Positions 1 through 7,081 of a stretch of 64,000 nt of DNA are shown here, piece by piece (position 1 is the stretch's first letter; each line of letters begins with the position of its first letter). Both the position numbers and the translations under genes were made by a program. The DNA is taken from positions 1,580 to 65,579 of the forward strand of contig SIRX01000021.1 in assembly GCA_004563715.1 (NCBI GenBank), read 5' to 3'. The notes under the pieces were generated by a model. The model saw only the letters and a list, made by a program, of their open reading frames with translations, searched no databases and was not told the origin of the DNA. The stretch is from Actinomycetota bacterium. Its GTDB lineage: Bacteria; Actinomycetota; Rubrobacteria; Rubrobacterales; Rubrobacteraceae.

Positions 1-2001
1 CCCGGTGAGCATCGTCTCCCAGCCGGTCGAGGCGACGGCGAGGACGCCGTGGTCGTCGCCCCCCACGCCGCCGTTCGCGGAGGGCTTCTCGCTCTCGGCC
101 TGCTTGAAGGCGTAGTAGATGGTCACGGGGTAGTCCGGGTTGGCCTTCTCGCGCATCCGGGCGAACGCTTCCCCAAGACCGCTCTCGAAGAACTCCTGCG
201 CCTTCTGCTTGCTGCCGCCGAAGCGGTAGGGCGTGGCGACTAGCTCCGCCGACTTGGGGACGAGCATCGTACCGAAGACCTCCGGGTAGACGCCGCCGAG
301 CGAACGCCGCAGCCAGACGTAGAAGAAGTCCGAGAGGTCGGCGTAGCCAATGTTATCGTAGTAGGGCGGGTCGGTCGAGATGACCGGGCGCTCGACACTG
401 TTGATAGAGTCGGTTGCATCTTGTTGATGAGCTTCGCTAATGCCTATTGCGGGAGACTCTGCGATTACTTTGTAAATCCAGTCAACTCCACCCTGAAAAT
501 TACCCGTCGAATCGCTCAACGGATTCGTCTCCGTGAAGTCCCAGTTCATCGGGATCGCCTGTCGCGCAAAGGTGTTTCGGATCAAATCTCGTCCAGAATG
601 CCAACTGGTTATGCTTGAACTGTAGTCGCTTAACCGGTCCACCGCGAACGCCAGATACGTCGCTACGGCGTCGGCGTAGGCTGCGGCCCGCTCTTCTGGC
701 AGGTCGCTAGCGAGGGCGTCGTTGCGGGCGCGTTCCCGCGCCTCTCCCACGAGGTCCGAGAACGTCCCGAGCGCGACGAGCTGGCGCGGGGTGAACAGGT
801 CGGCGAAGGTGGTCAGACCGTACGGGAGGCACCAGAGGTTGCGCGGGTCGTTCGCAAGCTCCTGCTCCGGCCCCCACTCGGGCCTTGCCCCCTCCGCCGC
901 CGCGACGTGTTCCCCGGTTGCCTCCAGGTACTTCCGGCCGCGATGCCCCTCGGCGACGACGGTCATCAGTTGCTGGCCCATGCGTCCGGCCTTGCCCTCG
1001 GCCTTGATGTGGGCGTCGTCCGAGATCTGGTCGCACACCAGACACCGGAACTTCGCTCCGCGCCCGAGCTTCGGCGGGTCCGGCGGCGCGCCGCTCGTCT
1101 GCCCATTTTTCACCACGAACCGGACGCCTGGCCTCCCGTCTTCGGTATCCGAGCCGTCCACGACGACCGGCTCGACCCACGCCTTCTTGTCTTTCTTCTT
1201 GGAGAGCCAGAACGAGCGGACGAGCGGCATCGTCGCGCCGCAGGCCGGGTTCGGGCAGCGGACGGTGCGCGCCCAGAGCCAGGCTATGACGGTCAACCCC
1301 TTCCCTGGGGCCGCAGCCATCCTGGCCGCATCACTCCCTGCTTCTCCCGCGGGCTGAAAGCTCCCGTCCCCAGGGTCCTTCACGGTCGGGTAGAGGTGGC
1401 CGATGCGCTCCTTCGCCTTCTTGCGCATCCAGGCCCCGTAGAAGCGCACGTCCTCGGCCAGCCCCTGCGCCCCGCGCCAGGAGGAGAGGTCGGCGGTCTC
1501 GCGGGACTCCGGGTTGACGGGAGGGTCGTTGGCGAACTTCGGCGGCAGCTCGATGAGGGCCTTCGTGATCATGACCGCCACCGGGTTCAGGTCGCTGCCG
1601 TGCGCCTCCAGCCCGAGCCGCTGGGCCTCCAGCGGGATCGAACCACCCCCGCAGAACGGGTCCAGCACCGGCGGCGGCTCGCCCCCGGTGGAGCACAGGA
1701 TCTCTTTCCGCGCCCTCCCCAGCACGCTCTCGTCCGAGGAGTTCTCCCACTTCACCAGCTCCCGGATAATGTCGAAGAGCCGCTCGCGCTCCCTTTGCGC
1801 CTCGTCTTCGGACAGGTCGTTCGACGGGTCGTCCACCAGCGAGGCGAACAGGACGGCCCGGCAGGCGGCGAGGGGTCTTCTGGCCCACCACAAATGAAGC
1901 GTCGAGGGGTGGCCGTGGCGGATAGACTTCTCGCGGGCCGACTCGGCGTTGATCTCGTCCAAAGGCAGCGCCACCTCGATCAGCTTCTTGCGGTAGGTCA
2001 T
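1..2001 (-). CDS. DUF1156-type DNA methyltransferase (N6-adenine/N4-cytosine class), C-terminus cut off by the window edge
   Basis: I translated the frame by hand. It is open for 667 codons from ATG 1999-2001, preceded by RBS GGAGGAAGGG. The N-terminus is [47 protein letters not shown], a DUF1156 signature. SAM motif I is DPFCGGGSIPLEAQ and motif IV is VISTDPPYYDNIGYADLSDFFYVW. It is absent from the ORF track because it runs off nt 1. Confidence 0.85.
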   Translation of the reverse strand, partial: MTYRKKLIEVALPLDEINAESAREKSIRHGHPSTLHLWWARRPLAACRAVLFASLVDDPSNDLSEDEAQRERERLFDIIRELVKWENSSDESVLGRARKEILCSTGGEPPPVLDPFCGGGSIPLEAQRLGLEAHGSDLNPVAVMITKALIELPPKFANDPPVNPESRETADLSSWRGAQGLAEDVRFYGAWMRKKAKERIGHLYPTVKDPGDGSFQPAGEAGSDAARMAAAPGKGLTVIAWLWARTVRCPNPACGATMPLVRSFWLSKKKDKKAWVEPVVVDGSDTEDGRPGVRFVVKNGQTSGAPPDPPKLGRGAKFRCLVCDQISDDAHIKAEGKAGRMGQQLMTVVAEGHRGRKYLEATGEHVAAAEGARPEWGPEQELANDPRNLWCLPYGLTTFADLFTPRQLVALGTFSDLVGEARERARNDALASDLPEERAAAYADAVATYLAFAVDRLSDYSSSITSWHSGRDLIRNTFARQAIPMNWDFTETNPLSDSTGNFQGGVDWIYKVIAESPAIGISEAHQQDATDSINSVERPVISTDPPYYDNIGYADLSDFFYVWLRRSLGGVYPEVFGTMLVPKSAELVATPYRFGGSKQKAQEFFESGLGEAFARMREKANPDYPVTIYYAFKQAESEKPSANGGVGGDDHGVLAVASTGWETMLTG
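1896..2000. repeat. Direct repeat copy 1 (105 bp) = first 35 codons of the intact methyltransferase gene
   Basis: Matches 2650-2754 at 104 of 105 positions (a versus g in ggcggatAgac / ggcggatGgac). The flanks diverge immediately on both sides. Confidence 0.9.
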
Positions 2002-2059
2002 CCCTTCCTCCGTCCGGTCGTCCCTCTATGTTCTTCGTCTACGCGGCGCACGCTGTCAC

Positions 2060-6500: not shown

Positions 6501-7081
6501 GGGTCGCCCGTCATGGAGGACTCGACCTGTTCGCGGGCCACGATCCTGAACGGCAGCCCGAACTTCCCCCGAAGCTCGTCTTGCCACTGCTCCACCAGGC
6601 TCCCCGGGCACACGACCATGCACCGCTCCAAGTCTCCGCGGGCGATAAGTTCTTTGATGAGCAGACCCGCCATGATCGTCTTCCCGGCCCCCGGGTCATC
6701 CGCCAGCAGGAAGCGCAGCGGCTGGCGATTGAGCATCCGCTCGTAGACGGCGGAGATCTGGTGCGGGTAAGGGTCCACGAGCGAGGTATGCACGGCGAGC
6801 AGCGGGTCGAAGAGGTACGCCGAGCCTATCCTGCGGGCCTCCGCCGCCAGCCGGAACCGCGCCCCGTCGCCGTCAAAGCGCCACCCGCCGTCCTCCCGCA
6901 CGGCCTTCAGGTTCGGCTCGTCCGACCGGAAGAGCAGCCGCTCCCCGATGCGGCCGGAGGCGTCCTTGAAGATCACCTCCACCGTCCCGTCCCCGCCCGG
7001 CTCTACGCTCTTCAGCGTGACAGCCCCGCCGGAGGACAACCATTCGACGAGCATCCCTCTTCTCAACTCTTCAAGCTTCAT
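3551..7081 (-). CDS. SNF2/RapA-like superfamily-2 helicase with a C-terminal DUF3883 (PD-(D/E)xK-like) domain
   Basis: 1176 aa. Motif I is [15 protein letters not shown], motif II is VVADEAHKM, and further motifs are [10 protein letters not shown] and the helicase-C motif [23 protein letters not shown]. The C-terminus has [31 protein letters not shown], which is DUF3883-like. Confidence 0.85.
   Translation of the reverse strand: [1176 protein letters not shown]

Follow-up and report, generated by a model that had tools for sequence, protein, structure and literature searches.

Nucleotides 1 to 7081 of a 64,000-nucleotide stretch of Rubrobacteraceae contig SIRX01000021.1 (the window, whose 64-kb coordinates are used here; reference loci are labelled L001, L018, L086, etc.) carry genes whose profile matches identify the locus as an Hma system, alias a type-1 DUF499-centred BREX-related (BR) system, which is a system of known kind. 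Between its helicase gene, hmaA, and its methylase gene, hmaB, lie a minimal nucleotidyltransferase (MNT) gene and a HEPN gene, predicted to encode an antitoxin and a toxin, and a broken NYN-domain RNase gene. We consider it likely that this is an Hma system on a small island behind a Lar_N-domain gene of a Rubrobacter-like, high-GC actinobacterial chromosome, that its MNT-HEPN pair is autonomous, and that it acts by the mechanism inferred below. Inspection of the open reading frames (ORFs) placed all of those in the locus on the minus strand, co-directional, with hmaA upstream of hmaB. The spacer between hmaA and MNT is 12 nt, and the MNT and HEPN genes share 17 nt. The features are as follows.

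7276..8928, minus strand: Lar_N-domain backbone gene (Pfam Lar_N, 6.5e-38)
3551..7081, minus strand: hmaA, SNF2-family helicase of 1176 amino acids with a C-terminal NOV_C PD-(D/E)xK nuclease (PADLOC and Pfam)
3155..3538, minus strand: MNT, predicted antitoxin, 127-amino-acid ORF (Pfam and motif)
2752..3171, minus strand: HEPN, predicted toxin of 139 amino acids, PF05168/HEPN-T type (Pfam)
2651..2770, minus strand: copy A of the duplicated HEPN-tail/hmaB-5' junction, a truncated hmaB 5' end (repeat identity)
2621..2649, minus strand: promoter-like site TTGAAG-17-TATTAT (consensus match only)
2552..2607, minus strand: two GC-rich hairpins, the second terminator-like (fold and conservation in L089)
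2060..2534, minus strand: NYN-domain RNase pseudogene, HEC-09 family (PADLOC and Pfam)
1..2001, minus strand: hmaB, DUF1156 N6-adenine-type DNA methyltransferase, running off the window edge (PADLOC and Pfam)

The helicase matched the PADLOC HmaA profile over positions 2 to 1170 of 1176 (E = 0, 1448 bits), with Pfam hits to SNF2-rel (1.5e-15), Helicase_C (7e-21), ResIII, and, at amino acids 1055 to 1138, NOV_C (PF13020, formerly DUF3883; 4e-20). Its catalytic motifs are intact (GAGKT131, DEAH229, a further motif at 606, D1085, E1100-x-K1102, and E1117), and these residues correspond to those mutated in Halomonas HmaA (PMC11232893). The methylase matched PADLOC HmaB over profile positions 8 to 681 of 967 (1.3e-244) and Pfam DUF1156 (5e-30), and its motifs DPFCGGG114 (FxGxG) and DPPY544 are likewise intact. 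The intact hmaB ORF starts at ATG 2001, with GGAGGAAGGG upstream, and 667 amino acids are visible; roughly 300 amino acids of the HmaB C terminus lie outside the window. All of the domain calls of a preliminary description of this locus (helicase with DUF3883, MNT, HEPN, and DUF1156) were supported by the Pfam and PADLOC profile searches, and its defense-type helicase and DUF1156 methylase module corresponds to HmaA and HmaB. The four co-directional genes with tiny gaps or overlaps that it had listed were confirmed, but it had missed the fifth, broken NYN/HEC-09 gene between HEPN and the intact methylase.

Hma (Helicase-Methylase-ATPase) was defined in 2021 by Payne et al. from 1,638 loci in 26 phyla (PMC8565338). 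A 2026 paper in Nucleic Acids Research reclassified Hma as type-1 DUF499-centred BREX-related systems, found them in 2,446 taxa, and traced Hma-type loci back to Anantharaman et al. 2013 (PMC12839542). In 2024, Halomonas HmaA alone was reported to shield Escherichia coli from T4, a protection that requires the NOV_C nickase residues D1084, E1104, and K1106 and has an abortive-infection-like phenotype; the same work reported an insertion hotspot for defense genes at hmaA|hmaBC (PMC11232893). The earlier view of the module as essentially uncharacterized is therefore outdated. The window shares with Hma systems the full-length HmaA with SNF2 and NOV_C, the DUF1156 N6-methyltransferase HmaB, the gene order, the co-orientation, and the embedding of genes between hmaA and hmaB. 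Specific to the window are the lineage-specific MNT-HEPN pair and the decayed NYN cassette, and its hmaC lies past the window edge. The HmaA of Halomonas meridiana, the sole member tested experimentally, has the same architecture as the window HmaA, and its motif I, motif VI R610, and NOV_C D/E-x-K/E residues are equivalent, at nearly equal numbering. The hotspot of the Halomonas meridiana locus is occupied as in the window, yet its cargo is Septu (PtuAB) whereas that of the window is a toxin-antitoxin (TA) pair, and the activity of the window HmaA is a prediction.

The third core gene, hmaC, which encodes the DUF499 ATPase, is expected just to the left of nt 1. We predict it downstream of hmaB because both L089 and L001 have hmaC material there: a HEPN_Swt1-plus-DUF499 protein in L089 and an HmaC C terminus (1.6e-91) in L001. 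At L001:4815-6781, hmaB reads for only ~251 amino acids and is followed by an ORF matching HmaC positions 542 to 940, which reflects either a large deletion or an assembly artefact.

A scan of GTDB genomes with HmaA returned 80 loci, the best from a Rubrobacter metagenome-assembled genome (83% amino acid identity), and additional loci came from a search with the HEPN protein and reading of the contexts. Of the 72 loci that show both hmaA and the start of hmaB, 66 have a gap of more than 400 bp between them, and in the other 6 the two genes are contiguous. MNT and then a PF05168 HEPN gene directly follow hmaA in L001 (Rubrobacter), L018 (Chloroflexota), and L072 (Poribacteria), and the archaeal locus L026 has MNT with a DUF86 HepT. 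The same order was found in further Hma loci, with HEPN identity to the window of 94% in L086, 64 to 66% in L087/L088 and L091, and 56% in L089, as well as in three metagenome contigs (L093 to L095; HEPN 54 to 57% identical). The position and order of MNT-HEPN are thus kept in all Rubrobacter-clade Hma loci found and in three more distant loci, so that the co-occurrence in related genomes anticipated earlier is borne out by this neighborhood survey. That unrelated genes lie side by side by accident, or that domains were miscalled, is extremely improbable: accidental adjacency is refuted by identical gene order recurring across many independent loci, miscalls are ruled out by the PADLOC and Pfam E values, and no point in support of either was found.

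L089 has the order hmaA-MNT-MNT-HEPN-NYN-hmaB-HigB-HigA-hmaC (HEPN_Swt1 and DUF499) and represents the window composite with an intact NYN gene plus the third core gene, hmaC. Its tandem MNT genes (L089:5044-6014; 168 and 155 amino acids; 70% nucleotide identity over 284 nt) precede a single HEPN gene. An embedded HEPN/MNT pair had been regarded as the unusual point of this locus, which is not upheld by published surveys: embedded genes occur in 62.7% of 1,485 Hma loci, with nine Hma-embedded candidates named (bioRxiv 10.1101/2024.01.29.577857), and HEPN, sometimes with MNT, is among the back-up effectors embedded in BREX/BR loci (PMC12839542). Among the entries listed in the part of the Payne 2024 supplementary tables available, none bears a HEPN or NTP_transf_2 name.

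The MNT protein matched Pfam NTP_transf_2 (1.2e-12) and Polbeta (1.3e-11). Its nucleotidyltransferase motif, GSVARG46...DSDLD56, is intact and conforms to the GSX10DXD motif of HepT/MntA-type MNT proteins (GSVARGEANYDSDLD), and its nearest PDB sequences are 1WOT and MntA-type antitoxins. The HEPN protein matched PF05168 (2e-23) and, in the Pfam search, no PF01934 (DUF86/HepT). The canonical Rx4-6H motif is not conserved across four Hma-embedded HEPN homologues, nor is the single RxxxxH of the window protein (R35-H40); H64, R97, Y98, P99, and D101 are invariant across the four and include an R97-Y-P-G-D101 motif. Anantharaman et al. 2013 described a HEPN variant in which D replaces H and a conserved H lies elsewhere (HEPN-T), and motif-less HEPNs nonetheless scored as toxins in a genome-wide screen. 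The residue pattern of the window HEPN fits this HEPN-T variant. Its PDB relatives are uncharacterized structural-genomics HEPNs (1WOL, TM0613/1O3U, and TT1696/1UFB).

The pair resembles the HepT/MntA type VII TA systems (Shewanella SO_3165/3166 and Aphanizomenon) in being an overlapping bicistron with MNT first and the GS...DxD motif. However, the toxin of those systems is a DUF86 protein with Rx4-6H-x-Y, whereas the window HEPN belongs to the PF05168/HEPN-T type and combines R-Y-P-G-D with a distal His. In the type VII systems the antitoxin AMPylates a toxin tyrosine and the toxin cleaves RNA; for the type found in the window this is an analogy, from which HEPN RNase activity and AMPylation-type neutralization are predicted.

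Conservation suggests that the true MNT start is probably ATG 3529, with the annotated start at 3538 being 9 nt too early. A TAGAAT box lies 7 nt upstream of ATG 3529, at 3537 to 3542 on the minus strand, inside the 12-nt hmaA-MNT spacer. The arrangement TAGAAT-N6/7-ATG is conserved in the window, L081, L082, and L083, with and without Hma (approximate box positions L081:8628-8633, L082:8632-8637, and L083:8634-8639). Because a TAGAAT-ATG spacing of 6 to 7 nt is typical of leaderless transcripts, we infer that this box may be a leaderless-type promoter of MNT-HEPN.

The island starts at the 3' end of the Lar_N gene. L081 to L083 have an orthologous backbone, in which Lar_N is 84 to 86% identical at the amino acid level and ADH and an epimerase are syntenic, and downstream of Lar_N they carry MNT-HEPN alone, without Hma. 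In L082, 36 nt of the hmaB 5' end remain after the HEPN stop (z = 14.6 versus shuffles). The Lar_N 3' end recurs in degenerate form, as a direct repeat, downstream of the orphan pair, over 52 nt in L081 (z = 12.1; L081:9420-9500, compare L081:8570-8625) and 28 nt in L082 (z = 16.8; L082:9465-9500, compare L082:7512-7540). This repeat has the appearance of an att-like duplication at the far edge of an island inserted long ago; in the window, its counterpart would be to the left of nt 1. A search for hmaA 3' remnants between Lar_N and MNT in L081 to L083 gave nothing significant, and a weak L083 signal (z = 5) overlaps the promoter box. In L082, the place that hmaA takes in the window, between Lar_N and the orphan pair, is occupied by a 301-amino-acid ORF with no Pfam match (L082:7587-8492).

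L090 contains, in order, Lar_N, DUF6880, a 173-amino-acid NOV_C fragment of hmaA, MNT, HEPN, ~100 nt of hmaB, and a 215-amino-acid HEPN_Swt1 fragment of hmaC, a gene content that marks it as an intermediate in Hma decay. In a neighbor-joining tree of MNT and HEPN, the Hma-embedded pair of L087 nests among the orphan pairs, at 77 to 80% identity. These comparisons indicate that the MNT-HEPN pair outlives the Hma genes at the Lar_N site. Because it carries a conserved promoter-like box of its own and is retained where Hma has been lost, the pair appears autonomous both transcriptionally and evolutionarily, which points to an autonomous TA module rather than to mechanistic coupling to Hma. No Hma gene was found nearby in 77 metagenome loci with distant MNT-HEPN pairs (HEPN <50% identity), and because of these 77 pairs we take the broad MNT-HEPN family to be an ordinary free-standing TA family with one Hma-associated sub-clade.

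In the mechanism that we propose, HmaB would methylate host DNA as a self-mark, HmaC would sense or license, and HmaA would translocate on unmodified invader DNA and nick it. MNT would neutralize HEPN by nucleotidylylation or binding, and a lost supply of MNT would free HEPN and lead to arrest of translation or growth. The MNT-HEPN pair would be a self-stabilizing passenger of the operon, not wired into Hma, that may add an independent abortive-infection layer. Addiction to the pair would explain why relatives that have lost hmaA, hmaB, and hmaC still keep it at the same site.

The stop codon of HEPN overlaps the TTG of a truncated methylase copy as TTGA (2755 to 2752), and this overlap is invariant in 10 of 10 aligned junctions. 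Copy A consists of TTG 2755 and the 105 nt of hmaB that it begins, copy B is 1897 to 2001, and the two are identical at 104 of 105 nt; with the preceding ~15 nt, the repeat spans 123 bp at 95% by self-blastn. A 74-amino-acid ORF at 2531 to 2755 is a read-through of copy A and no gene, its first 35 codons repeating the methylase start. L086 lacks the insert, its HEPN leading directly into hmaB through the TTGA overlap, and positions 1386 to 1504 of L086 align with both window copies. The window is therefore best described as an L086-type allele that acquired a 633-bp insert (2019 to 2651) and a ~120-bp duplication. The comparison indicates that HEPN was formerly coupled directly to the methylase, as had been claimed from the TTGA overlap, and that insertion occurred ~105 nt into hmaB, with a duplication that regenerated intact hmaB. 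A second HmaB N-terminal match in L039 was considered as another duplicate and rejected as high-scoring segment pair splitting.

The insert opens directly after copy A with the TTGAAG-17-TATTAT site, the sole sigma-70-like match in 1900 to 7400. The two-hairpin element (2552 to 2607, minus strand; fold of -41.1 kcal/mol, z = -3.15) lies upstream of the NYN start, contains a terminator-like match at 2582 to 2561 (the second hairpin and then a T-run), and is kept in L089 (L089:6560-6610; alignment A3). No Rfam match was found within nt 1 to 9000. The first hairpin has a UUCG loop, and C-G/U-G swaps distinguish its window and L089 versions. As the element follows the promoter-like site, it could be an attenuator, or else a terminator for the upstream genes.

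These junctions bear on the alternative that MNT-HEPN is a functional part of an Hma subtype, coupled to hmaB and fired when Hma is inhibited or overwhelmed, as with PrrC in EcoprrI. PrrC is likewise a HEPN RNase nested in a restriction-modification (R-M)-like operon (type Ic EcoprrI) and is the paradigm of a back-up layer. However, PrrC is held inactive physically by the R-M complex, whereas the window pair has an MNT antitoxin and its own promoter-like box, which argue for autonomy. The published proposal for Hma is R-M-like, with methylase self-marking, DUF499 sensing, and a helicase-nuclease effector (PMC12839542), and the layered arrangement of methylation, helicase-nuclease, and abortive module that had been suggested for the window matches, by analogy, published hypotheses. 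The pair follows hmaA directly and in fixed order in at least 11 loci, including distant phyla, its TTGA overlap with the hmaB start is invariant, and HEPN homologues of at least 50% identity are almost all Hma-associated or in Hma relics. In addition, many HmaC proteins have a fused HEPN (PMC12839542), which makes an RNase back-up a theme of the family. Against integration, the pair has its own conserved promoter-like box and persists alone after Hma decay, and a 633-bp insert with a terminator-like hairpin is tolerated between HEPN and hmaB. L089 holds both a HEPN_Swt1-HmaC and an MNT-HEPN pair, so the pair is no substitute for the fused HEPN. On balance, we regard an integrated layer as clearly unlikely and retain the autonomous TA module.

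The NYN gene consists of two out-of-frame ORFs (2244 to 2534 and 2060 to 2419), both of which match PADLOC HEC-09 (PDLC04163; 1e-14 and 1.6e-18); the C-terminal one also matches Pfam NYN (5e-06). The two halves are 87 to 89% identical to the intact 208-amino-acid NYN protein of L089, relative to which the window has a 152-nt internal deletion and a frameshift, with the junction near 2359 to 2362 (nucleotide alignment A3; protein alignment A1). Because the deletion shifts the frame, the window NYN gene is a pseudogene and presumably non-functional. The Payne et al. 2024 preprint describes HEC-09 as a NYN/MARF1-like RNase and reports that it was not protective when assayed (bioRxiv 10.1101/2024.01.29.577857). 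Intact homologues are embedded in L060, L011, and L089, whereas the window copy lacks the intact ~200-amino-acid ORF.

Between the window and L089, amino acid identity is 50% for HmaA, 56% for HEPN, and 64% for HmaB, compared to 87 to 89% for NYN, which implies that the NYN cassette was exchanged far more recently than its surroundings. We also considered that ~600 nt of the hmaB 5' end had been imported with NYN from an L089-like donor. This was rejected, since the identity profile has no sharp breakpoint; the hmaB 5' end is the most conserved part in all comparisons made, and the window repeat copies resemble each other and not L089. We attribute the duplication of the methylase 5' end to the NYN/HEC-09 cassette; possible routes for it are local target duplication, Campbell-type integration, and unequal exchange followed by gene conversion.

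In every Rubrobacter-clade locus, an hmaB 5' piece of varying length follows the HEPN stop (alignment A4). It is 105 nt in the window, before the NYN cassette and intact hmaB; ~123 nt in L001, before HigB/HigA and hmaB; and ~32 nt in L087/L088, before a PIN gene and hmaB. In L090 (~100 nt) and L082 (~36 nt), no hmaB follows. Outside this clade, a partial hmaB-5' duplicate flanks a Schlafen/HATPase_c_4 gene and a ParA-like gene in L007, a small ORF in L055, and an ORC/CDC6-like ATPase gene in L024, the last with a second copy of the hmaA 3' end (330 bp at 85%) in front of it. In L064, too, the hmaA 3' end is duplicated, next to an AAA_21 ATPase gene. These NOV_C-coding duplicates (L024:13125-13454 versus 16687-17016; L064:13389-13562 versus 15870-16047) resemble traces left when distinct Hma loci exchanged DNA. 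The HigBA proteins of L001 and L089 are 70% and 85% identical and yet occupy different slots, that of L089 lying between hmaB and hmaC. In a cyanobacterial locus, an embedded ~170-amino-acid gene in the hmaA-hmaB gap is tandemly duplicated (L023:13802-14263 versus 14356-14816; 79% nucleotide identity).

Cargo types at the hmaB 5' end thus include NYN, HigBA, PIN, and Schlafen, sometimes with an hmaA 3' duplicate alongside. This pattern suggests that the conserved hmaB start is where cassettes come in, and that they are retained only if an intact methylase is regenerated; embedding may be concentrated there because only methylase-sparing insertions are tolerated. Tentatively, and with a little less than even confidence, we extend this to a general model in which the hmaB 5' end is an entry point where small RNase-toxin modules insert 30 to 190 nt in, a duplicate restores the methylase, diagnostic scars are left behind in several phyla, and the TA relic outlives the system at the same chromosomal site. 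If true, the entry-point model would explain "guilt-by-embedding" both mechanistically and by selection, a point left open by published work.

The same cargo raises the question of whether MNT-HEPN, NYN, HigBA, and PIN are purely selfish addiction modules that collect in an hmaA-hmaB "genomic sink" and have no role in defense. In favor of this, the TA pair is retained after its host system is lost, its wider family commonly occurs as a free-standing TA, the cargo observed in the slot is in every case a small RNase-type toxin module, HEC-09 did not protect in published assays, and the NYN gene of the window is dead. However, defense was observed for seven of the nine Hma-embedded candidates that were tested, 96.7% of embedded genes share the orientation of the system that hosts them (bioRxiv 10.1101/2024.01.29.577857), and the Hma-associated sub-clade is long-lived. 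We consider a purely selfish role rather unlikely.

Several points weigh against the reading preferred here, an Hma system with an autonomous MNT-HEPN pair. hmaC is not within the window, so that completeness of the system is presumed. The function of the locus is predicted from its sequence, and the promoter calls are sequence motifs. Over-expression of Halomonas HmaB left T4 sensitivity unchanged (PMC11232893), and self-marking by the methylase is hypothetical. The HEPN protein lacks Rx4-6H, so that its toxicity and RNase activity are predicted from data at the family level. Finally, the fixed position, order, and start/stop overlap with hmaB across phyla could equally mean functional integration.

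As a system, the locus adds little, since Hma/BR type-1 loci with embedded effectors have been catalogued in thousands. Its value is that of a natural series, which runs from the uninterrupted L086 through three different cargos of the same slot, all accompanied by an hmaB-5' duplicate (the window, L001, and L087/L088), and the intact composite L089, to decay to a bare TA pair at one site (L090, L082, L081, and L083). The series makes testable how genes become embedded in defense operons and why TA modules persist, and the locus offers a PF05168-type HEPN/MNT pair in a defined defense context. The hmaB-start scars and the Lar_N-site decay series are what make follow-up worthwhile.

On the upstream side of the island, the genes at 8.9 to 12.2 kb are housekeeping genes (MOSC, MarR, protoglobin, and ADH), and no mobility genes were found among them. 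The MOSC/YiiM, MarR, and protoglobin genes at 8929 to 11030 lie between Lar_N and ADH, where L081 to L083 have at most one small ORF; this difference is an indel in the backbone and has no connection with the Hma island.

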